From Candidatus Aenigmatarchaeota archaeon (lineage in GTDB: Archaea > Aenigmatarchaeota > Aenigmatarchaeia > CG10238-14 > SpSt-28), in NCBI GenBank assembly GCA_038997305.1, contig JAWAZZ010000002.1, positions 8,217 to 72,216 on the forward strand: 64,000 bases of DNA, in the 5' to 3' direction. This document shows, piece after piece, positions 15,507-58,596 of the stretch. Position numbers and translations under genes: made by a program. Numbering within the stretch: position 1 is the first letter of the stretch; each line of letters starts with the position of its first letter. Under the pieces are notes generated by a model that had not been told where the DNA came from, searched no databases, and worked only from the letters and a program-made list of their open reading frames with translations.

Positions 15507-16160
15507 ATGAATAGCATAGAAAAAATTTACGTTAAAGATTTTTATGATGTCGCTGCAGATAGCTGGATAAATATTAGACAAAAATTTAAAGTTTTAGAAA
15601 AATTTAAACATATACAAAACAAAAAAATACTTGAAGTTGGTTGCGGAACAGCTACTCAATTACTTGAATTTAAAGAAAACTTTCTTGTTGGTATTGATAT
15701 ATCAAAGAAAATGATTAAATATGCTATTGAAAACGCAAAAAAGAAAAACGTTAAAATATATTTCGTATTAGCAGATGCTAGAAAATTACCATTTAAAGAA
15801 AAAACTTTTGATTTTGTATTAAGCATCGCTACAATACATCACATCTATAGAAGAAAAGATCGAATTAAAGCTCTAATAGAAATGGTAAGAGTTTGTAAAG
15901 ATTCCTGTTTTATTTCAGTTTTGAAAAGATATTCAACTCTAACATTTAAAAAACTCTTTATAGATTTTTTCAGATTCTTTTCATTTGGAAATATATTCTT
16001 AGAATGGAAGTATAGAGGAAAGAAATTGAAAAGATTTTATCATACATATTCACTAAGAGAATTAAAGAGTGATTTGAAAATTGTCGAGAAATTTTTTAAG
16101 ATATCTTATGAAATTTCTCAAGACAAACTAAACTTCTTTGTACTAATAAAAAAATATTAG
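15507..16160 (+). CDS. Class I SAM-dependent methyltransferase
   Basis: Motif I ILEVGCGTATQ, and acidic motif II and post-II residues VLADARKLPF. Confidence 0.6.
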   Translation: MNSIEKIYVKDFYDVAADSWINIRQKFKVLEKFKHIQNKKILEVGCGTATQLLEFKENFLVGIDISKKMIKYAIENAKKKNVKIYFVLADARKLPFKEKTFDFVLSIATIHHIYRRKDRIKALIEMVRVCKDSCFISVLKRYSTLTFKKLFIDFFRFFSFGNIFLEWKYRGKKLKRFYHTYSLRELKSDLKIVEKFFKISYEISQDKLNFFVLIKKY

Positions 16161-16261
16161 CCCCGCCCGGATTCGAACCGGGGTCTCCGGGTTTCTTTCA
16201 TCCTTTATCAAAGCTTTGGATGCCCAAAGCCCGGCATCCTTGGCCACTAGACGACGGGGCT
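16158..16261 (-). tRNA. tRNA-Gln (anticodon TTG) with an anticodon-loop intron of about 31 nt
   Basis: Reverse complement has an AGCCCCG/CGGGGCT acceptor stem with the A1:U72 pair typical of archaeal tRNA-Gln, TTCGAAT T-loop, anticodon stem CCGGG/CCCGG and loop CUUUGG. A roughly 31-nt insert (GCATCCAAAGCTTTGATAAAGGATGAAAGAA) sits at the canonical 37/38 position. Confidence 0.75.
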
Positions 16262-20578: not shown

Positions 20579-21001
20579 TCAATCTTTTAGAATCTCTTTT
20601 ATTTTTTCTATTTTTTCTTTAAGCTTTTTGTTTTCTTCTATAATATTTGCTAGTTCTCCTGAAAAAAACAAATTGACTAGCTCGATTTCATTCTTCAATT
20701 CTCCCTTCTTCAAAAGTTCATAAGTTTCTAAAACTAATTTTCCTGCTTTAGATTCTCCTTCTATATGTTTCTTTATAGTTTGTTCAGTTCTCCCAACTTC
20801 TGTAGCAATTTCTCTTAAACTCATTTTGGCTTTTGCTCTTGCTATAGCTGCTGCAGCTACAAATAAACTGTCTACCCACGTTAGTCTTTCTTGTGGATCT
20901 TTTGCAAGCTCCAATACATCTTTTCTAAACAAAGTAGCAAAAAATAAATAATTCTGCAAATCCTCTATCTCTTTTCTTCCTATTGGATTTAATGGTATCA
21001 T
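20579..21001 (-). CDS. HTH DNA-binding regulator (140 aa)
   Basis: Helix-turn-helix segment [21 protein letters not shown]. Overlaps the KaiC-like gene by 4 nt. Confidence 0.45.
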
Positions 21002-21720
21002 AATTTAACAATTCTATCTTTATGAACTATTATTCCTTTATCTGTTATTTCGAATTCGTGTCTTTTCATAGAGTGAGATGTACCTCTCATTTTCCAAATT
21101 ATTAAAGACCTTTTCAACTCTCCATTAATCTCGTCTAAATCTAGCCTTATTATTCCATCTACTCCATGCTCAACTCCAGGACCACCAAACCCTCTTTCTC
21201 CAACACTTATCTGACTTACAAAAATACTTGTAGTTCCTAAACCTGCAAAAACTCTTTTTAATGTTAATACAATCTTTCTAGCAACACTTGGTTTATCTAT
21301 ATATAATGTTGTGACACTATCAATAACAACCCTTTTTGCATTAACATTAGTTACTGCTTCTCTAACTACATCTATAAATTCCCTTAGATCTGTTAAATCT
21401 TGAACTATATATTTTTCATACTCTTTAGCCTTTCCTATTCCGCTACTAAACGCATCTACCAAAGCAAACATATTTTTTTCTTCATATTGCTTTACATTCC
21501 ATCCAAATTGTAACATGTTTTGCCTAACTTGTGCCGGATGTTCCTCTAAAGCAACATATACTCCATTTTCATTCATCTGCAGCCCATTCCATAAGAATTG
21601 TTGAGCAAATATAGTCTTTCCAGTACCTGGTCCTCCGCTTAATAAAACTACGTTTCTCTCTGGAATTCCCCCATTTAATAAATCATCTAAGCCAGGTATT
21701 CCTGTTTTTACTCTTCTCAT
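20998..21720 (-). CDS. KaiC-like single-domain RecA-superfamily ATPase
   Basis: [14 protein letters not shown]...[17 protein letters not shown], then YVALEEHP...FGWN, the KaiC/RadB-type pattern. Length 240 aa. Confidence 0.75.
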
Positions 21721-21741: not shown

Positions 21742-24474
21742 TTAAAAAGATAAAACTTTTGATTTTGCGCTAGAAGAATAAAAGATTATTTCACCATTAC
21801 AAATAGGACATATACCATTTAACGTAGGTCTTCTATAAACTGTAGAGCAATTATTACAAATAAAACCTATTAATTCTTCATGCTTTATCTTATCTGCAAT
21901 ACCTTTCGAAATCTGCTTATTTTCGCTATTACCATTACCGTTTTTTATCGTATTATTTATTAAAGATAATAGGGAAATCTGCCTACTACCAGTTATAAAC
22001 TGAGAAGATGAAATACCTATTACATTGAATATTCTTTCGAGTGGAGGCAAAAGTTGATGATAGATATAATAATCTGCATCTATCGGTATCTTGTTTTTCT
22101 TTACATATTCTGGTGTTTCTGCCCTTTCAACAATTTTTTGTGGACCTGCAACTATTACATAACTTACTCTATCACCAACACCAGGTATATTTGCCTCTCC
22201 TCTCCTTATCATTTTCTTAACAAGCTCAATGTGTGGTTGCTGACCTTTATATTTATCTAACGGTCTTGATATCGATTTTACTATTGCCAATTTTTCTACA
22301 TCAATTTCATTATTTTTCAATTTCTTAAATATATCTCTTACATACTCAAAAGCTTTTTTCTTGTCGCCTTCTATCAGCAATATTTCTATCACTTTCGACA
22401 AAGTTTCGGTAACTAAATCACACCAATCTCTTCTTACAGTTTCTATACCTTTCATTACTATCTTACCATTATCTTTTAAATCTTCGAATAAATATCCAGC
22501 ATATTTTTTCTTTGTTATAAAAATTATTTTTTTCATTACACCTTCTATCTTCATCTTTATGTATTCTGGAGTTTTTGAATTAACATACTCTTCTATCTTT
22601 TTTCCTACTTCAAAAACTTTTTCAAAGCTATCTACATTATTACCAACTTTTACCATTACAGAATCTGTATCACCATAAACAACTTCATAACCTAGTTCTT
22701 TTTCTACTATTTCTTTAACTCTTGTTATCCAATATCTACCATAAGCTGTTATCGTGTTTGCAATGTCAGAAACAAAAAATCTAGCTCTCAAATATCCGCT
22801 ATATCCATAAAAAGCATTGGCTAAAAGTTTTAATGCTAGTTGTTTTGCATCAAGCAAATTTTTCTTTATAGGATCTTGTTCTTTTTTCATTAAGCTTTTT
22901 ACTTTATCTCTTTCTTCTATTAATCTTTTTAAAACTCTGGGATAAATTCCTTCTTTAACTTTTTTAGAAACAAAATATGTTTTAATGGGTGATTCTATAA
23001 CTTCTAATCCTTCTACTTTATTTTTTAAATAAGTTGTTGGGCAAATATTGTATTGAATTATTAAACTTGGATATAGAGATTTGAAATCTAAGTAAACAAC
23101 ATTTTCATGTAACCCTGCTTTAGGCTCTAAAACTATTGCACCTTTCACTTCTTCCTTTTCTCTTTCTTTCAATTCTCTTTTACTTGGTTTATTAGGTATA
23201 ACAATATCTTCTTTATTAAATTCTCTTAGCAAAAACTGTTCTATTCTTAAAGATTCGCTTCCACTTAATGAATCTTGCAATAATAATCCGCTCAATCTAG
23301 AAATTTCTATATACTGGGAAATAAAATCTCTGCTTAACATAATTTCCAAAACTAATTCTGCATCCGTTTTTGCATATTTTATCAATCTTAACAAATCTTC
23401 ATCACTTCCTTTCCAAAGTTTTATTATTTCACTTCTATCTACATCTTCCTTCGTTTTTCCTATAAGAATTTGAGCAACATCACCCAAACCCAATCTTTTT
23501 GTTTTAAACATTCCTTTTTTAGAAAATTCTTTAAGTATTTCGTAAAAGTCTATTATAACTCTTCCAACAATAGAATTTTTGTATCTTTCCTCACCTATTT
23601 TGGAAGATTTAGCCGATTTTTTAGCTCTTCCTAAATAGGGTTTTATCTTGTTTATTCTGCATCTTTCTACAATATATGGAATATCAAAGTTGTTGATGTT
23701 GTACCCAATTAAAAAATCGGGATCGAACTTTTTCACGATTTCTAAAAACTTTTTTAGCATTTCAGCTTCATTCTCAAAACTTAATATATAATCGTGCTCA
23801 TTACTTAAATTAACTTTTTTTGAAACTAATACCAAACTTTTTTTACCTTCAAATTCTGGATAAAACGATAGAGATATTATTGATATAGGATTCGTTTTAA
23901 CATCAGGAATTCCACTCTCATTTGCAACTTCAATATCAAAAGATAAAATTTTGAAATTAGGTAATTTATTTTCTTCTAATTCTTCAAACTTGCTAGCTTC
24001 GAATTTTAACTCTGTAAAAACTGTTTTTGTATGGTTAACAAATTCGCCTTCTGCTACATACCATTTACAACCAGCTAAATTATTATCTGCCATGAATCTA
24101 TATTTGAAAAGTATGTCTGCTTCGAATGTTTTTTCGACAAAACTTTGGGAATGTAAATCCTCTCTTATTAAAGGAACTTTCGAAGGATTTTTGAGAGTTA
24201 TCTTATATAACTTCGCTTTCTTATCCTGATAACCTATTGGCAAATATTTTTCAACCTTTTCAACTTTTACTATTAAATTCTTATATTTTCTTTCTAAAAA
24301 ATCAAAAAATAAATGTTCGCTGTTTTCTTTTATTTTAACATAAAAGTAAGGAAAGAAATTTCTAACAAAAATTGTTATGGAATTGTTTGTTTCAGTTTTT
24401 CCATATATTCTAATTAGAGGTACATCGTCTACAATATCATAATCTACATCTAACAAGAAAAAACTAACTTTCAT
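21742..24474 (-). CDS. polB: Family-B DNA polymerase (PolB copy 1) with a C-terminal Cys4 zinc-ribbon extension
   Basis: Exo I FDIEV, Exo II YNINNFDIPYI, Exo III YAKTDAEL. Pol A DFKSLYPSLII, Pol B KLLANAFYGYSGY, Pol C YGDTDS. C-terminal roughly 100-aa extension ending CNNCSTVYRRPTLNGICPICNG (C-x2-C-x14-C-x2-C). Confidence 0.95.
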   Translation of the reverse strand: MKVSFFLLDVDYDIVDDVPLIRIYGKTETNNSITIFVRNFFPYFYVKIKENSEHLFFDFLERKYKNLIVKVEKVEKYLPIGYQDKKAKLYKITLKNPSKVPLIREDLHSQSFVEKTFEADILFKYRFMADNNLAGCKWYVAEGEFVNHTKTVFTELKFEASKFEELEENKLPNFKILSFDIEVANESGIPDVKTNPISIISLSFYPEFEGKKSLVLVSKKVNLSNEHDYILSFENEAEMLKKFLEIVKKFDPDFLIGYNINNFDIPYIVERCRINKIKPYLGRAKKSAKSSKIGEERYKNSIVGRVIIDFYEILKEFSKKGMFKTKRLGLGDVAQILIGKTKEDVDRSEIIKLWKGSDEDLLRLIKYAKTDAELVLEIMLSRDFISQYIEISRLSGLLLQDSLSGSESLRIEQFLLREFNKEDIVIPNKPSKRELKEREKEEVKGAIVLEPKAGLHENVVYLDFKSLYPSLIIQYNICPTTYLKNKVEGLEVIESPIKTYFVSKKVKEGIYPRVLKRLIEERDKVKSLMKKEQDPIKKNLLDAKQLALKLLANAFYGYSGYLRARFFVSDIANTITAYGRYWITRVKEIVEKELGYEVVYGDTDSVMVKVGNNVDSFEKVFEVGKKIEEYVNSKTPEYIKMKIEGVMKKIIFITKKKYAGYLFEDLKDNGKIVMKGIETVRRDWCDLVTETLSKVIEILLIEGDKKKAFEYVRDIFKKLKNNEIDVEKLAIVKSISRPLDKYKGQQPHIELVKKMIRRGEANIPGVGDRVSYVIVAGPQKIVERAETPEYVKKNKIPIDADYYIYHQLLPPLERIFNVIGISSSQFITGSRQISLLSLINNTIKNGNGNSENKQISKGIADKIKHEELIGFICNNCSTVYRRPTLNGICPICNGEIIFYSSSAKSKVLSF

Positions 24475-24507: not shown

Positions 24508-25518
24508 TTACTCTTCTCTATTATATATTTTCTTTTCTTTAAAATCGATTAAACAGTTCTTAAGGTTCTTAGGAATTTCTATCATTAACGGGTTTGTATC
24601 AACAAAATTCGCTCTATCTTTATTAGAATTGTAAACTATAAAAACGTTTGGTAATTGAAGAAGTAGTGCCATATCATCTTTATATTTTACAAACTCTTCG
24701 AACTTAGGTGTTATTAATCTAGTCTTTAAGAAAAAATCTAAATCAAAACCTATCTTATTCGAATCAATAGCAACAAAGAAGAAATCCTCTATAAAAAACC
24801 TATGTATAGGGATTTTCCTATCCAAATAAATAGTATTTTCTTCTACTTTATTTTCATCGGCTAAAAAAATATTTACATCTCCTTTATCTTCACTTTCTAT
24901 TTTTTCAGTAAAAAATCCTATTTTTAAATCTAAATTCGAGTTTTGTTTGGAAACTTTCTCAAAATCTTTTTGTTTAAATTCTGGAAAGAATATCTCTTCA
25001 AAAACTATTTGAGAATCTTCGAAAAAACATTTAGCACCTATTACTATATCTTCCCTTAAGTATTTCAAATAACTCTTAGCCTTTTCTGATAATTTGACTT
25101 CCACTCTAGAAGATAAATCCTCTATTACTATTTTTTCATCTCTAACCGAGTATAAAATTCCTATTATCGAAAATGTTTTAAACCTCTTAGAAATTTTATT
25201 AATAGAAATTGGATTTAAAAATAATACATCGTTCTTTATTATCTCAGAAAGTTTTTCGTATCTTCTTTTTATAATTTCTATATACTCTATTATTTTTATC
25301 TCGGTATGTAGTGTTGGAAATATCATCGAGATTTTATATATTTTTTTCTTAGCTTCCCTTAATATCTTTTCTATTTCATTTTTTTCTAGAACTTTTGGTT
25401 CTTGAGATTTTGGTAAACTATTCAATAATAACTTAAATTCGTCATCACTCAGCGATAGTATATATTTAGAATCCCTAACTAAATATCCTTTTTTTAAAAG
25501 TTCTATTATTCTATCCAT
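24508..25518 (-). CDS. Hypothetical protein; tentative PolD-DP1/eukaryotic B-subunit-like accessory protein with a degenerate phosphoesterase domain
   Basis: The N-terminus LLKKGYLVRDSKYILSLSDDEFKLLL resembles the DP1 N-terminal helical domain (LLENGYLITPSAYYLL...). It is followed by an OB-like segment (FSIIGILYSVRDEKIVIEDLSSRVEVKL...IVIGAKC). No intact calcineurin-type GDxHG or GNHE motifs. Ends 34 nt upstream of PolB on the same strand. Confidence 0.35.
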   Translation of the reverse strand: MDRIIELLKKGYLVRDSKYILSLSDDEFKLLLNSLPKSQEPKVLEKNEIEKILREAKKKIYKISMIFPTLHTEIKIIEYIEIIKRRYEKLSEIIKNDVLFLNPISINKISKRFKTFSIIGILYSVRDEKIVIEDLSSRVEVKLSEKAKSYLKYLREDIVIGAKCFFEDSQIVFEEIFFPEFKQKDFEKVSKQNSNLDLKIGFFTEKIESEDKGDVNIFLADENKVEENTIYLDRKIPIHRFFIEDFFFVAIDSNKIGFDLDFFLKTRLITPKFEEFVKYKDDMALLLQLPNVFIVYNSNKDRANFVDTNPLMIEIPKNLKNCLIDFKEKKIYNREE

Positions 25519-25527
25519 TTCATATTA

Positions 25528-25791
25528 TTATTTTTTAACTTCTAAATAGTAAAGTGTTAAGCCTTTTTCGTTTGGTTTTTTTGAATGTGGTGTTTCCATC
25601 TTTTTTACTCTATCTAGTTTTACCAATTCTTCTAAATATTTTCTGACTGTGTTCCAACTAACATTTTTTTTCAATCTTTCTGAAATAAATGCTGTTATTT
25701 TTCTCACGTTAGATGGATATGGATGTAATGAAAAATACTCTTCTATTAAAGAATAGATTTCAAATCTTATCGACGGTCTACCCCTCTTCAT
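25528..25791 (-). CDS. Small winged-helix DNA-binding protein (87 aa)
   Basis: Basic wHTH-like pattern (NVSWNTVRKYLEELVKLDRVKKMET...GLTLYYL). Borders the iteron-containing gap. Confidence 0.45.
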   Translation of the reverse strand: MKRGRPSIRFEIYSLIEEYFSLHPYPSNVRKITAFISERLKKNVSWNTVRKYLEELVKLDRVKKMETPHSKKPNEKGLTLYYLEVKK

Positions 25792-26058
25792 AATATTTTT
25801 TATGAACTTTCATATTATAATTTGTGCAATCCATATATATATTTACTTGATTTCTGTTTCTTAATAACATTGTAGTAAATAAAACAATCCTAAGTTTTTA
25901 ATACTAAAACAAAATTAATTAAAATTATAACGTTGTTATATTTGATATTGATCAATAAGTTATTAAAAATGTAACGTTATTAAAAATTGGACAAAATTTA
26001 AATAAAGATTAAATTCATTCTTTATTAAATTTGTTACACAAATATTTTTTCGAATATT

Positions 26059-26194
26059 TTCAGAAAAATTCTGAAACTTTTCAAAAATTCTTAGAAACTT
26101 CATAAAAATTGGTAGAATTTTCATAAAAAATGTTTGAAAGTTCATAGAAATTTTCTGAATATTTTCAAAAAATCTCTGAAAGTTCATAAAAATT
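26059..26194. repeat. Array of about seven imperfect 21-bp direct repeats (iterons), consensus about TCTGAAAGTTCATAAAAATTC
   Basis: Cores TTCAGAAAAATT, TTCAAAAATTC, TTCATAAAAATT, TTCATAAAAAAT, TTCATAGAAATT, TTCAAAAAATC and TTCATAAAAATT begin at about 26059, 26080, 26099, 26120, 26141, 26164 and 26183. Periodicity is 19-23 bp, about two helical turns. The array lies in the 452-bp non-coding gap 25792..26243. Confidence 0.6.
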
Positions 26195-26243
26195 CTCAGA
26201 AAATAACAAGAACAATATAGGAATAATCTTCACTTCTGAGAAG

Positions 26244-26516
26244 TTAGTAAAACTCTCTTATGAAATCTTTGATGAATTCAATTAATTTCTCACCCTTTTT
26301 GGTAAGTCTTATTACTTTACTTCTTCCTGTTTTTTCGAATTCTATTATATCCATTTCGTAGAGCATTTTTAACATGTTTAATGTATGGGAATATGTTGTT
26401 TGAGTTTTTCTGTAAATTTGTGTTATATTCTTTTCTTTTAGATCAGAAAGTACTAAAAGCAATTTGAATGGCTTTTCCTTAAATAAGAAATTTATAATGG
26501 ATTTTTTAGTTGACAT
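26244..26516 (-). CDS. Small wHTH transcriptional regulator (90 aa)
   Basis: ArsR/TrmB-like wHTH features (ITQIYRKTQTTYSHTLNMLKMLYEMDIIEFEKTGRSKVIRLTKKG). The 5' portion overlaps the Bud32 gene by 11 nt. Confidence 0.5.
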   Translation of the reverse strand: MSTKKSIINFLFKEKPFKLLLVLSDLKEKNITQIYRKTQTTYSHTLNMLKMLYEMDIIEFEKTGRSKVIRLTKKGEKLIEFIKDFIREFY

Positions 26517-35415: not shown

Positions 35416-35505
35416 CGCCCCGGCCGGGATTCGAACCCGGGTCTGCGGCGTTCTGTTGGATTAACATTGACAGGCCGCCATCCTAGACCACTAGACGACC
35501 GGGGC
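35416..35505 (-). tRNA. tRNA-Asp (anticodon GTC) with an intron of about 17 nt at a non-canonical position near 38/39
   Basis: Reverse complement has a GCCCCGG/CCGGGGC acceptor stem, anticodon stem GCGGC/GCCGC and loop CTGTCAA, a 17-nt insert TGTTAATCCAACAGAAC before the 3' half of the stem, TTCGAAT T-loop and discriminator G. Confidence 0.65.
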
Positions 35506-39158: not shown

Positions 39159-39288
39159 AGAAAGATTAAAAACTTAAAAAATTTATTTTTTAAAATCAAG
39201 TGAAAAATCCTTATCTAATCTAATGGGAGTATGTGTCCAGTAAAGGATGAGTACTTTATAACTTAAAAACTTAACAAATAAATTTCTA

Positions 39289-39640
39289 CTAAAAAATCAA
39301 AGAAAAAATTATTACAAAAATTATACTGCTCTTATCAATAAGGACAACGTTTATTGAAGAACCTTTTTGTAAAGCCAGAAAGTATAAAATCCAGGGAGCA
39401 GTTCCTGCTAATCCGCTTAGAATTATAAACAAGACTTCTTTATTAATTAGTTCTTTAACTAGGGCACCTTTATTTAAGATTAAAACTAAAGAAACGGCAA
39501 AAAATCATTATTATTATAGATCTTAAAGCTGTTGCAAGAATGGAATCTACTTTTTGCAAGCCAATTTTTGATAATATAGTCGCTAAAGCAGCAAATATAG
39601 CACTTCCTAAGGCAAGAACAAACTTTTGATTTAATATTTT
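39289..39640 (-). pseudogene. EamA/DMT-like small transporter remnant: no canonical start codon, and a frameshift within an A6/T6 homopolymer (39499-39504)
   Basis: Hand translation of the minus strand gives an EamA-like N-half (...VLALGSAIFAALATILSKIGLQKVDSILATALRSIIIMIF) ending at a stop. A -1 shift in the T6 run restores a continuous C-half (...LVLILNKGALVKELINKEVLFIILSGLAGTAPWILYFLALQKGSSINVVLID...). No in-frame ATG/GTG/TTG near the 5' end, which abuts tRNA-Ala. Confidence 0.45.
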
Positions 39641-45755: not shown

Positions 45756-45787
45756 ACAAAAGATAGATAAAAAATTAAATATATATT

Positions 45788-46207
45788 TTATTTCTCTGTG
45801 TTGTCAAAATCATAAAACTTTACCAAATTTCTTATAAAACCCTTCAATTCTTTATTTTCAACAACATTACTAATTGCTTCTATCAGATCCCATCTGCAAA
45901 TAGGATAATTTGACAATCTTTCTATACTTTTAAGTTCTCTATGGTTTGCTCCCTTTTTTCTAAGAAAAGTTAAAATCTTCTTTATAAATTGTTGATGGAG
46001 TTTTTTAGAAGGCGGCGTTAGGAATAATGCCTCTTTACAAATTACACAATCAACTTTTTCTGAAACAATACTTTTATCCTCTTCATAATACTCACTTTCT
46101 TCCTCTTCTTCATAGAAAATTTCAAAAAGTTGGGAGTTTAACTTAGAAATTTCTCTATTTATAAAATCTTTCAGCCGAGTTGAGGGAATTTTTCCCCCTC
46201 GGCTTTT
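45788..46207 (-). other. 139-codon open reading frame lacking any canonical start codon: possible pseudogene, non-canonical start or short 42-aa peptide
   Basis: Hand-checked triplet by triplet. Open from the stop at 46208-46210 to the stop at 45788-45790. The only in-frame ATG/GTG/TTG codons are TTGs in the last 43 codons. Product ...EEEEESEYYEEDKSIVSEKVDCVICKEALFLTPPSKKLHQQFIKKILTFLRKKGANHRELKSIERLSNYPICRWDLIEAISNVVENKELKGFIRNLVKFYDFDNTEK is protein-like. Confidence 0.25.
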
Positions 46208-46209
46208 TT
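46172..46209 (+). terminator. GC-rich hairpin followed by a T6 run (intrinsic-terminator-like structure)
   Basis: GCCGAG(tt)GaGGG-AATTTTT-CCCC-CTCGGC then TTTTTT, read directly. It is the only GC-rich stem in this AT-rich gap and lies inside the 5' part of the start-less frame on the opposite strand. Confidence 0.3.
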
Positions 46210-46338
46210 ATATTGTAGAGAAGTATATATCTTCATATTTAAACTTTCTATACATATAAAGTTGGTTGTAGTTTTCAATTCTTTCTCCATATTTAATATT
46301 AAATATTAGAGGTAAAAATATTTATTCTTTTCTATAAT

Positions 46339-55568: not shown

Positions 55569-56159
55569 ATGAAATATACATTTTACTTACTTTCGACAAT
55601 CTTTGTAGTTTTTTTGTTTCAAATTATCATAGATAATTTTACTTCGATATTTTCTTTAATTCCTAAAAAAGTTTTTGAAGGAGAATTATGGAGAATCGTT
55701 ACATCTATTTTTTTACATGCAGATTTTTTCCATCTGTTTTTCAATTCATTTGCTTTATTGATGTTTGGACCAATTTTGGAAAATACTATAGGCAATAAGA
55801 GATTCTTAATAGTATTTTTTATAAGCGGAATTTTAGGAAATTTTGCATATCTATTAACGAGTTTTGTTGTAAATGATCTAGGTACACCAGCTTTAGGCGC
55901 TAGTGGTGCAATATATGGAGTAATAGGGACTTTAGCTATATTAAAACCTACCACAATAGTTTTTGTCTATTTTATTCCAGTACCTCTCTTATTTTTGGCC
56001 ATATTTTGGATATTTACAGAATCTTTAGGAACAATATTACAATTATTCGGTGCAAAAACATCTATAGCATATCAAGCACATTTGGCTGGTTTACTATTCG
56101 GAATTTTTTATGGATATAGATTAAAAGAAAGTGGAATTAAAATTAGATATTATTACTGA
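55569..56159 (+). CDS. Rhomboid intramembrane serine protease
   Basis: Catalytic GASGAIYG (GxSG) and AHLAGLLFG (His). Six TM segments. ATG at 55569 chosen over the upstream alternative start at 55485, which would overlap the divergent NMD3 gene by 50 nt. Confidence 0.8.
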   Translation: MKYTFYLLSTIFVVFLFQIIIDNFTSIFSLIPKKVFEGELWRIVTSIFLHADFFHLFFNSFALLMFGPILENTIGNKRFLIVFFISGILGNFAYLLTSFVVNDLGTPALGASGAIYGVIGTLAILKPTTIVFVYFIPVPLLFLAIFWIFTESLGTILQLFGAKTSIAYQAHLAGLLFGIFYGYRLKESGIKIRYYY

Positions 56160-58596
56160 AAAATTTGGATAAAGAAGTTTGCTTTGTTCCTTTGATTATG
56201 TCACTTTCAGTAATGTTTAAAACAGAGAGAACTCTTAATGCAGCAGGTAATATTTGATTTGAAATATAATATTCAACATCCACATCTTCTTTTTTTACAA
56301 AAAGAGCATATTCTGCTTTTTCAGATATAGAATTTCCATACTTCGTTATTACAAAAGGTATTATACTTCCTTCAGATATTTTTATTCCTCTTTGCATAGC
56401 TTTTTTAGCTGCAATTACATGAGGACTTATTTGTTTATATTCGCTAATGTTTTTTGTTAATTGCTCGTATATTGTAACATCTTCTAATTTAAAGTCGAAA
56501 TTTCTTAATTTTTGAATTACATTTCTTACATATTCTATTGCCTTTTTTGTATCATTTTCTTTTAATATTATTTCTAGAACATTTCTTTGAACTAACTTAG
56601 CTAATTTACACCAATCTCTTCTAACTGTTTCAAAACCTCTAATTTCTAAAGATCCATCTTCACTTAATAATGCATATCTCTTTTTGGCACCAGCTTCCTT
56701 TTCTCTTTTTTTGACGAAAATTCCTCTAACATAAAATCCTCTAAATTCTAACTCCATTTTACTTTTTAAAGAAGAATTAACTAAGTTCAAAAAGTTTTGA
56801 GCAGCTTTTATAAAATCTTCTTTATTGAGTTTTGAAGTTATCATAAGGGAATCTGTATCTCCATATATTATTTCAAAGTTGAAGCTTTTAGCCAATTCAG
56901 CAACTTTTTTAATATAGCTTCTTTCAAAGGCAGTAACACTTTCCGCGCATTCTCTTTTATACCATCTCGCACCAACATAACCTAAATATCCATATGTTGC
57001 GTTTGCAAGAATTTTAAGAGAGTATTGTAGCGCGTCTAGTAATTTATACTCTTCACTATTTTTATCTATATTTTTCATTAACTTCTTTATTCTCGCTCGT
57101 TCATCGATTAAAAATTCTAAGTGTTTAGGTATAAAACCTTTTCTTAAAGTGCAAAAATGATAATTTAGTTCAGGAACTTTGTTTTCTGATTTACAGATTT
57201 CATGTTCACAATTAAAAGTGTCTATCGAAATATTATGAGCAACGATTATTGTTGGATATAAAGATTTGAAATCTAACACAATTATATTTTCGTGTATACC
57301 TGTTTTTGGCTCAAAAACAAAAGCACCTTTATAAGGAGCCTTTAATCTTCTTATTTTTAATTCTTCGTGTTTAGGTCTGTTGGGTGCTATTTGATTATCC
57401 TTATATGAATTTTTTAAAAGATAAGCTTCTACAAGCTGAGAATATGTGTTTCTGCAAACATCAAATAAACTTAAAGAAGTTATTTTAGATAGTGCAATCA
57501 TCTGTGGTAAAAATATATCTAAAAGTTTTAGAACTAGTTCGCAATCCCAAACATTATATTCTATCGCTTTTTTTATATCTATTCCTTGTTTGAATATTAA
57601 TTGCATTTCTTCAAAGGTTAGCTCTTTCTTTCCATAACCTAAAAACTCTTTTGCAACAGCATCTAAAGTTAAAACTTCTGTTTTTATGTTTGGAGATAGA
57701 ATATGGTCAACAAAAACATATAAATCTAGATAAACTCTTCCAGGAATTTTAAAAGACTTTACCCATCCTCTTTTTACAGTTTTTATTTTAGAATTTTCTT
57801 TTCCTATGTTTAGTTCTAATCCATACTTTTCTGCTTTTTCTTTTAGCAAAGGAAAATCAAAACCATCTGTATTATATCCAACTAAAATATCTGGATCTTT
57901 CTCTTTTATTATTTCTATAAATCTTTTTATTAGCTCTTTCTCAGTTTTAAAAATTTCTACATTTTCAGTTTTTTCTCCAAAATCCAAACTTAAAGTTATT
58001 TTAAATCCATCATTCCCAACTATCGATATTAATGCAATTTTTTCAGCATCTTTTTCTTCAAATATTTCTATATCAAATGCATATATTTTAAGTTTTGGTA
58101 ATTTGTTAATTTCAATATTTTCTATTTTTTCTGCTAAAATTTTCTCGTCTTTTTTTATTCCATAAACTTTCAACCAGCCAGATGGTAATATATTATTGTC
58201 TATCAGAAATCTTCTATAGAACGGAATATCATATTCGAATGTTTCTAAAACTTCATTAAAATTATCTTTTATAAATTTTCTTACTTTTGGAATTTTTCTC
58301 GGATTGTTAATAGTTATTTTTACAATTTTTACTTCTTTACCTAAAAACTCTTTTTTTAATATTTCTATATTTTCTATTTTTGCTTCAGGAATTCTTGTCT
58401 TTTTCAATTTTTCTAAAAACTCTGGAATTAAATCTTCTTTAACCAAAACGTAAAAATATGGTAAAAATCCCTTATAATAAATGACTAAATTATTTCCTTC
58501 CAAATCTTTACAGAACATTCTTATTACTGGTTTAAATTCCTTAGTAAGAACATAGTCAATATCTAATAAAAAAACCTCCTTTTCTACTTTTTCCAT
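56143..58596 (-). CDS. polB: Family-B DNA polymerase (PolB copy 2)
   Basis: Exo I FDIEIF, Exo II YNTDGFDFPLL, Exo III YNVWDCELV. Pol A DFKSLYPTIIVAHNIS, Pol B KILANATYGYLGY, Pol C YGDTDS. Length 817 aa, no Cys-rich tail. Confidence 0.95.
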   Translation of the reverse strand: MEKVEKEVFLLDIDYVLTKEFKPVIRMFCKDLEGNNLVIYYKGFLPYFYVLVKEDLIPEFLEKLKKTRIPEAKIENIEILKKEFLGKEVKIVKITINNPRKIPKVRKFIKDNFNEVLETFEYDIPFYRRFLIDNNILPSGWLKVYGIKKDEKILAEKIENIEINKLPKLKIYAFDIEIFEEKDAEKIALISIVGNDGFKITLSLDFGEKTENVEIFKTEKELIKRFIEIIKEKDPDILVGYNTDGFDFPLLKEKAEKYGLELNIGKENSKIKTVKRGWVKSFKIPGRVYLDLYVFVDHILSPNIKTEVLTLDAVAKEFLGYGKKELTFEEMQLIFKQGIDIKKAIEYNVWDCELVLKLLDIFLPQMIALSKITSLSLFDVCRNTYSQLVEAYLLKNSYKDNQIAPNRPKHEELKIRRLKAPYKGAFVFEPKTGIHENIIVLDFKSLYPTIIVAHNISIDTFNCEHEICKSENKVPELNYHFCTLRKGFIPKHLEFLIDERARIKKLMKNIDKNSEEYKLLDALQYSLKILANATYGYLGYVGARWYKRECAESVTAFERSYIKKVAELAKSFNFEIIYGDTDSLMITSKLNKEDFIKAAQNFLNLVNSSLKSKMELEFRGFYVRGIFVKKREKEAGAKKRYALLSEDGSLEIRGFETVRRDWCKLAKLVQRNVLEIILKENDTKKAIEYVRNVIQKLRNFDFKLEDVTIYEQLTKNISEYKQISPHVIAAKKAMQRGIKISEGSIIPFVITKYGNSISEKAEYALFVKKEDVDVEYYISNQILPAALRVLSVLNITESDIIKGTKQTSLSKFFSNNI

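Follow-up and report, generated by a model that had tools for sequence, protein, structure and literature searches.

A conserved, helically phased 21-bp repeat array between two winged-helix genes precedes the PolB-DP1 operon of Aenigmatarchaeota and may control it

Contig JAWAZZ010000002.1 of a Candidatus Aenigmatarchaeota metagenome-assembled genome (MAG; GC ~28%) carries, within the 64-kb stretch of DNA that we analysed (hereafter the window), a 452-bp non-coding gap (25792–26243) between two minus-strand genes for small winged helix-turn-helix (wHTH) proteins. On its downstream side the gap meets the start of an 87-residue protein (wHTH87; 25528–25791, start at 25791), the first gene of an operon that continues with a DP1-like B-subunit and the DNA polymerase PolB, and on its upstream side it meets the end, at 26244, of a gene for a 90-residue protein (wHTH90; 26244–26516). 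The question raised by this locus is what such a gap does at the head of a polymerase operon. An earlier reading of the letters alone (hereafter the sequence-only reading) had proposed a replication origin, an iteron-type control region or a multi-site operator. Our analysis indicates that the gap is best explained as a conserved region on which DNA-binding proteins are predicted to assemble and to control, in cis, the wHTH87-DP1-PolB operon.

The dominant feature of the gap is an array in which eight units of 21 nt follow one another in exact register (26041–26208, minus strand), six strong (26062–26187) and two weak and terminal, as delineated by Tandem Repeats Finder, unit parsing, a 62-unit logo, lag-21 statistics and the periodicity of A/T tracts. 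On the gene strand the unit consensus is RTGAAnnTTC-nAnAn-TTTTTT, in which a short dyad, GAAnnTTC, lies beside six A/T pairs. Tandem Repeats Finder returned 26059–26202 with a period of 21 (7.0 copies, 72% matches) and, as the best tandem repeat of the window (score 128), a period of 42 with 2.9 copies, revealing a 42-bp super-period. The lag-21 self-identity of 0.64–0.65, compared with a window mean of 0.333 (standard deviation 0.045), is the highest found at any lag from 6 to 60 across the 64 kb and was reached in none of 2000 Markov-1 simulations, the simulated maximum being 0.548. The exact register, the repeat finder and the simulations thus bear out the claim of about seven 21-bp repeats made in the sequence-only reading. 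Exact copies of the unit core, GAAnnTTCATAAAAA, are confined to the gap within the 64 kb, which rules out the dispersed low-complexity motif that the same reading had raised against itself. The weak first unit lies 35 nt and the first strong unit 56 nt from the wHTH90 stop codon, and the last unit is directly followed by TGTGTA (26035–26040, minus strand), which recurs in three of the related loci (L002, L039, L043) and as TGTATA in two more (L056/L065).

The A/T tracts of the array recur at 10–11 bp with a spectral power of 2.98, against a mean of 0.32 (standard deviation 0.22), the first rank among 6384 scan windows. Because the units lie two helical turns apart without indels and the A/T tracts are helix-phased, all sites are expected to lie on one face of the DNA, and from the same periodicity the array is predicted to be intrinsically curved. 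This combination of strict 21-nt register and first-ranked periodicity fits cooperative binding along one face. Among 62 unique units, conservation is concentrated in contiguous blocks of DNA (G3, A4, T9, C10, A13 and T17–21), with an information content of 2.4 bits at C10 and 1.5 bits at G3.

We compared 13 versions of the gap from ~10 lineages, reached via homologues of three neighbouring proteins; the DP1-like proteins of these lineages are 70% to 37% identical to that of the window. The order is common to all 13 gaps: an array of 3–8 units, the palindrome ATAAC-N3-GTWAT, an AT-rich spacer, an inverted unit GAAnnTTCATAAAAA, and then the wHTH87, DP1 and PolB genes. A non-coding region of 300–520 bp is kept in every lineage sampled, the array begins 0–65 nt past the stop codon of the upstream gene, and 69 units hold the 21-nt register without a single indel. 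The DNA between array and inverted unit has a GC content of 14–21% in all lineages, and blastn comparisons between gaps align nothing besides array, palindrome and proximal unit. The repeat structure is far beyond chance, and it is under strong purifying selection as DNA. Copy number is nonetheless polymorphic, as two near-identical strains (L058, 7698–8003, and L059, 7741–8003) are separated by a clean 42-bp, two-unit deletion.

The element is also strictly linked to its genes. In distant lineages (L054, L058–L061) the genes upstream of wHTH90 differ, ribosomal protein genes standing in place of RPA, RadA and Bud32, and the wHTH90-gap-wHTH87-DP1-like-PolB module is kept, except in L054, where an unrelated 124-residue gene replaces wHTH90. 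A two-unit DNA pattern run against metagenome contigs gave 43 matches, of which four are real arrays, all four located between wHTH90 and wHTH87 homologues; the other 39, together with a single viral match, are chance or unrelated short repeats. No relatives of the module were found in viral contigs or plasmids, leaving a mobile-element origin unsupported. The only mobile-element hint for the wHTH90 family is a distant wHTH90-like protein (33% identity) encoded directly upstream of a tyrosine integrase gene on a groundwater contig (L062, 6001–6288; L063, 5111–5398), with an OrfB/TnpB-like gene ~3 kb upstream. A literature search found no published description of the element.

The inverted unit, TGAAAGTTCATAAAAA (25797–25812, minus strand), had been overlooked in the sequence-only reading. 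It is complementary at 16 of 16 positions to 26177–26192 and lies 5 nt ahead of the wHTH87 ATG; measured from its G, the distance to the ATG is 20 nt here and 17–24 nt in 10 of the 13 related gaps. Abutting it upstream is a TATA-like sequence, TTATAATA (25813–25820, minus strand; −29 to −22 from the wHTH87 ATG), the putative promoter element. A comparison of upstream regions showed that the TATA-like boxes of other window genes end ~17–20 nt before the ATG, and therefore the inverted unit would fall in the interval from TATA box to transcription start at which archaeal repressors usually bind. Complementarity between proximal unit and array averages 14.73 of 16 positions within a lineage and 14.55 of 16 between lineages, a near-equality that fits a single fixed protein-recognition consensus.

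Between array and inverted unit lies the AT-rich spacer (25832–26031), the least stable 200 bp of the window in a nearest-neighbour stability scan, with 25790–26189 being the least stable 400 bp; at the 60–100 bp scale other intergenic regions are equally or more unstable. The spacer is unconserved in sequence apart from the palindrome, ATAAC-N3-GTTAT (25927–25939), the sole exact copy in the window. In its general form, ATAAC-N3-GTWAT, it occurs in all 13 related gaps, 71–117 bp past the array and 90–158 bp ahead of the inverted unit. The two TAACGTT copies pointed out in the sequence-only reading are present at 25928–25934 and 25972–25978, the second having been created by a local 42-nt duplication (25897–25938 versus 25941–25982, 71% identity) that is specific to this lineage.

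Both flanking genes encode small winged-helix proteins, as had been read from the letters. wHTH90 passes the Pfam cut-offs for HTH_45 and DUF6293_C, and its model consists of a winged helix followed by a long C-terminal helix. The structures that it matches best are AF1382 (33% identity), MarR regulators, pNOB8 AspA and Sso10a-2, the superposition on AspA giving template modelling (TM) scores of 0.78–0.83 and root mean square deviations (rmsds) of 1.1–1.3 Å; the match to NCBIfam Sso10a is weak and below the cut-off (E 1.2e-4). wHTH87 has no significant match in Pfam or NCBIfam. Its AlphaFold model (predicted local distance difference test, pLDDT, 86.9) nevertheless shows canonical wHTH topology, with a flexible N-terminal arm, helices 1–3 and a wing. 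Fold matches of wHTH87 are generic (PadR, MarR, TFIIIC, Hop2 and Cdc6, E 1e-3 to 1e-2) and a PDB sequence search returned non-significant matches only; since the family also stands alone, there is no support for wHTH87 being a fragment of Orc1/Cdc6.

The residues of wHTH87 that are expected to face DNA are conserved. Its N-terminus reads MK(R/K)GRP, with G, R and P invariant in all 14 homologues, and the same set shows little or no variation in helix 3 (SWNTxKKYLEEL) or at H, S, K and G of the wing. An RGRP-like arm (RGRP, HGRP or RGRK) is present in most of 14 distant family members inspected. The core of an AT-hook is RGRP flanked by basic residues, which the arm of wHTH87 resembles, and binding in the minor groove is predicted on that basis. 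A profile search of 1.84 billion representatives recovered 62 members of the wHTH87 family, nearly all stand-alone proteins of 57–136 residues, and none of the 62 is fused to an AAA+ domain. The wHTH87 profile matches a 1038-residue protein (P0086) at 14 separate places, suggestive of winged helices in tandem. The two wHTH families consist of small, stand-alone proteins, and their named members are all from Aenigmatarchaeota.

From these observations we infer, with a probability of about 0.45, that the gap combines a phased multi-site array with a proximal operator through which the RGRP-arm protein wHTH87 autoregulates the polymerase operon, with wHTH90 on the central palindrome. The recognition helix of wHTH87 would read the GAAnnTTC dyad in the major groove, and its KRGRP N-terminal arm would act like an AT-hook and read the adjacent A-tract in the minor groove. 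A wHTH87 molecule on the proximal unit would then block initiation of transcription of its own operon, while the upstream array would take up several copies cooperatively and serve as a loop partner or as a reservoir, thereby sharpening the feedback. The dimer-type wHTH90 would sit on the ATAAC-N3-GTWAT palindrome. The invariance of the putative DNA-reading residues of wHTH87, paired with that of the motif, lends indirect support to sequence-specific binding of this protein to the repeats. The steady 17–24 nt between inverted unit and ATG argues for a role in the expression of wHTH87, DP1 and PolB, as a plain origin-flanking site would not need it.

Several points weigh against such autoregulation. 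An array of 5–8 sites located 250–400 bp upstream of the promoter is, to our knowledge, unusual for archaeal regulators. In three gaps (L009, L064 and L039) the inverted unit lies at 35–54 nt from the ATG, and some lineages offer only a weak TATA candidate, L060 having CAAAAGGAA at the expected place. In addition, the eukaryotic Pol delta subunit p66 binds the B-subunit through an N-terminal winged helix, and by analogy wHTH87 could be a polymerase accessory subunit instead, in which case the array would be bound by another protein. Finally, a region of this size and low duplex stability, with the skew breakpoint described below in its vicinity, suits an origin at least as well. The two roles can be compatible, as they are in iteron plasmids (PMC4980987) and at the bacterial oriC-dnaA locus.

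An origin is accordingly the alternative that we weighed at greatest length, and here the data point both ways: what stands of the earlier proposal is a phased, putatively protein-binding array beside genes for DNA-binding proteins, its array, palindrome and inverted unit being the only alignable parts of the gap across lineages in which DP1-like identity has dropped to 37–45%, and the choice between origin and operator draws evidence on either side. We regard it as possible, if doubtful, that the gap is a chromosomal replication origin whose phased repeats and opposed unit flank an AT-rich unwinding element. The part of initiator would fall either to a divergent Orc1/Cdc6 whose gene lies at another locus or to the small wHTH proteins beside the gap, and autoregulation of the neighbouring gene would be a side effect, the situation seen in iteron plasmids, lambda ori and bacterial oriC-dnaA. 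A narrower version, which we consider improbable, makes the gap the chromosomal origin, or one of several, of an iteron-like kind that is recognised by a small AT-hook and winged-helix protein encoded in the usual place of orc1/cdc6, upstream of DP1. Helical phasing of A-tracts is a property of lambda ori and of iteron origins, and the array shows it strongly. In Pyrococcus the cdc6 gene is reportedly followed by the PolD genes. The Pyrococcus oriC lies upstream of cdc6; archaeal origins generally comprise an AT-rich stretch flanked by oppositely oriented repeats, next to the initiator gene, and their origin recognition boxes (ORBs) are reported to be diverse (PMC4010727). Comparable in position to this oriC, the gap comes immediately before the gene ahead of DP1. 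In all lineages compared here, the array and the oppositely oriented inverted unit flank a spacer of 14–21% GC; in the window that spacer is the least stable DNA at both 200 and 400 bp, and the non-coding region of 300–520 bp has been retained throughout. Further evidence comes from a skew model that separates gene orientation from position at third codon positions (GC3 and TA3). The orientation-corrected GC3 skew has a breakpoint at 20–28 kb with the polarity of an origin, matched by none of 2000 permutations, and the direction of skew is shared by eight related loci. Plus-strand GC3 skew is about −0.28 to the left of the breakpoint and ~0 to its right, and the log-likelihood gain is 30–36 over 20–28 kb, being highest at 21.7 kb and amounting to 33.3 where the gap lies; breakpoints placed outside this interval give a far poorer fit. 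However, this change is one-sided, without a reversal of sign, TA3 skew does not change across the window, and the likelihood profile is so flat over 20–28 kb that the breakpoint is not placeable at the gap specifically. Membrane-protein genes contribute to the signal, which in the related loci is carried by just two opposite-strand genes, both for membrane proteins; the breakpoint could reflect an origin, the edge of a rearrangement or differences between gene classes. No Orc1/Cdc6 was found by Pfam among the 30 window proteins, in the 9 kb past the right end of the window or within 8–10 kb in nine related records, so that the gap, unlike archaeal origins, adjoins no such initiator gene. The flanking proteins are single winged helices of 87–90 residues with neither an ATPase nor an AAA+ fusion, and the array unit is presumably unlike ORB and mini-ORB sequences. 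The two-unit difference between the near-identical strains L058 and L059 also speaks against an origin.

The remaining explanations are less probable still. Dimeric wHTH90 might nucleate on the palindrome or the repeats and spread, making the gap a centromere-like or chromatin-boundary site, or the phased A-tracts might position archaeal histones; we judge such an architectural or segregation role to be quite unlikely. It draws on the closeness of wHTH90 to the structures of the centromere-binding AspA and the chromatin protein Sso10a-2, with the weak NCBIfam Sso10a match, on the strongest 10–11 bp A/T periodicity of the window, on a histone gene 4 kb away and on phased direct repeats upstream of an operon, an arrangement typical of type II plasmid centromeres. 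Yet MarR-type regulators match wHTH90 equally well, a partition NTPase is not consistently linked, the KaiC-like gene being present in some lineages only, and the information concentrated at C10 and G3 indicates sequence-specific recognition over mere bendability. Action of the repeats in RNA or as terminators is very unlikely. Oligo-T tracts terminate archaeal transcription, and each unit has five to six T on the sense strand, directly past the upstream stop codon, as would suit a multi-terminator or insulator; termination, however, needs neither the conserved GAAnnTTC core nor a strict 21-nt register. Alternatively, RNA read through the array could pair with the proximal unit, to which it is complementary at 14–16 of 16 positions, and mask the wHTH87 start, but the proximal unit and the array show no lineage-specific covariation (14.73 versus 14.55), which leaves pairing in RNA, or in a cruciform, unsupported. 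Rfam gave nothing for the gap at the gathering threshold, its two matches being at chance level (E 0.1–0.6). That the array encodes a protein is extremely improbable. A 74-residue open reading frame (ORF; 25963–26187, minus strand) is annotated across much of it by the NCBI pipeline PGAP in this MAG, as hypothetical protein QW197_00885 (MEM5828047.1), and would be a small heptad-repeat protein; in most lineages this frame runs through the array without a stop. Against this, QW197_00885 is a singleton cluster without homologues and without a Pfam match, the matching gap carries no gene call in nine related records, the potential products range from 16 to 86 residues with unrelated C-termini, and in L054 a stop falls within the array. 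A second frame of the same strand is open through the unit as well. Information per codon position over the 62 unique units is 0.96, 0.60 and 0.83 bits, so that conservation is lowest at position 2, contrary to what a coding sequence would show, with variable positions producing radical changes such as Q/L/P/R. The unconserved frame, the codon-position pattern and the singleton cluster lead us to reject the coding reading and uphold the earlier view that this ORF mirrors the DNA repeats; very probably the repeat has given rise to a spurious gene call in QW197_00885.

The gap lies in a cluster of replication genes. The DP1-like protein (336 residues; 24508–25518, minus strand) is identical (100%) to QW197_00875, and its N-terminal and OB parts match the NCBIfam PolD small subunit below the cut-off (E 1e-13); it is the inactivated B-subunit described in the literature (PMC7544198, PMC12680538). 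PolB (910 residues; 21742–24474, minus strand) ends in a CxxC...CxxC tail and corresponds to the Aenigmarchaeota "B6" PolB with its DP2-like C-terminal domain (PMC7544198). A second PolB, without the tail, is encoded at 56143–58596. After PolB, 20579–21720 (minus strand) carries two genes, one with a KaiC domain (TIGR03877, above the cut-off) and one with the regulatory domain called "near_KaiC" (TIGR03879), so that the reported proximity of PolB, DP1-like and KaiC genes is confirmed, with DP1 identified through the sub-threshold NCBIfam match. KaiC-type genes also follow PolB in L001, L002 and L007 and are absent there in L056, L060 and L064. A histone gene (Pfam Histone) lies 4 kb from the gap. 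The sequence-only reading had called the gap the largest intergenic region of the window, which is incorrect, since two ORF-free regions are longer: 45756–46338 (583 bp), upstream of NurA/HerA, and 39159–39639 (481 bp), which ends at a tRNA-Ala. Neither has an Rfam match at the gathering threshold, and no ORB-like repeats were found in either. Rfam also identified two tRNAs for which ARAGORN made no call, at 35416–35505 (90 nt) and 16158–16261 (104 nt, minus strand); both probably contain introns.

The polymerase behind this region gives the finding its interest. In Aenigmarchaeota DP2 is absent, and the "B6" PolB with a DP2-like tail has replaced the catalytic subunit of PolD and binds the inactivated DP1, as yeast two-hybrid assays showed, an arrangement considered as a model of how eukaryotic replicative polymerases arose (PMC7544198, PMC12680538). 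The gap is the only strongly structured non-coding region beside this PolB-DP1 operon and is conserved in the sampled relatives along with two wHTH families. If it is a control region, it offers a first handle on how expression of the PolB-DP1 polymerase is controlled, together with a testable recognition pair, an RGRP arm and winged helix on GAAnnTTC and an A-tract. Should it instead be an origin, it would belong to an archaeal type without an adjacent Orc1/Cdc6 gene, and, if wHTH87 were its initiator, the locus would hold a replicator-initiator pair that is not based on Orc1/Cdc6 and that heads the operon of a eukaryote-like PolB-DP1 polymerase. In either case the annotation of QW197_00885 should be treated as spurious.

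Iteron plasmids are among the closest known systems. Their repeats are ~21–22 bp long and helix-phased, and cooperative binding depends on the phasing (PMC4980987). The gap shares with pPS10, R6K, P1, F and RK2 the phased tandem repeats of ~21 bp, within the ~17–22 bp of iteron-type direct repeats, the AT-rich neighbour and the adjoining winged-helix gene. Autorepression in iteron plasmids works through an inverted repeat copy located where the rep gene begins. An inverted copy is likewise found here at the putative promoter of the adjacent wHTH gene (10 of 13 gaps), which makes the likeness stronger than the sequence-only reading could have known. The systems differ in that plasmid Rep proteins have two winged helices, whereas the proteins here are single winged helices of 87–90 residues encoded in a DPANN chromosome; moreover, there are no DnaA boxes, and initiation here is unsupported. 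The opposed repeats flanking AT-rich DNA, the cluster of replication genes and the lowest stability of the window recall an archaeal oriC with its ORB or mini-ORB elements and Orc1/Cdc6, but the units are packed head to tail at a 21-bp spacing, the skew is one-sided and no Orc1/Cdc6 or WhiP gene is adjacent. Lambda ori, with four iterons bound by the O protein, resembles the array in its direct repeats with an internal dyad, its phased, curving A-tracts and its adjacent AT-rich stretch. It lies inside the O gene, however, and as the O protein is unrelated the resemblance is architectural only.

Other parallels concern the binding proteins. wHTH90 superposes on AspA of pNOB8, and the repeat arrays of centromeres, when located upstream of an operon, double as autoregulatory sites; compared with AspA and with the type II parC/ParR centromeres, the present locus has no linked partition ATPase or ParB, and its array lies downstream of the wHTH90 gene. 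The GAAnnTTC core is identical to that of the heat-shock element nGAAnnTTCn, whose binder, heat-shock factor (HSF), is also of the winged-helix class. The sole sequence link to HSF is non-significant (E 0.67–1), and rather than homology we take from it a lead for how two winged helices might occupy an 8-bp dyad. Stf76 of pSSVx is reported to be a small archaeal winged-helix repressor with two sites in its own promoter (PMC4027180). The two loci are alike in having a small wHTH gene directly downstream of a putative operator and a site between a TATA-like box and the gene start, and the present locus differs in its extra array of 5–8 units 250–400 bp upstream, its separate palindrome and its replicative polymerase operon. 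The element may be regarded as a variant of known control regions that pair repeats with a winged-helix protein, here at the head of an archaeal PolB-DP1 operon.

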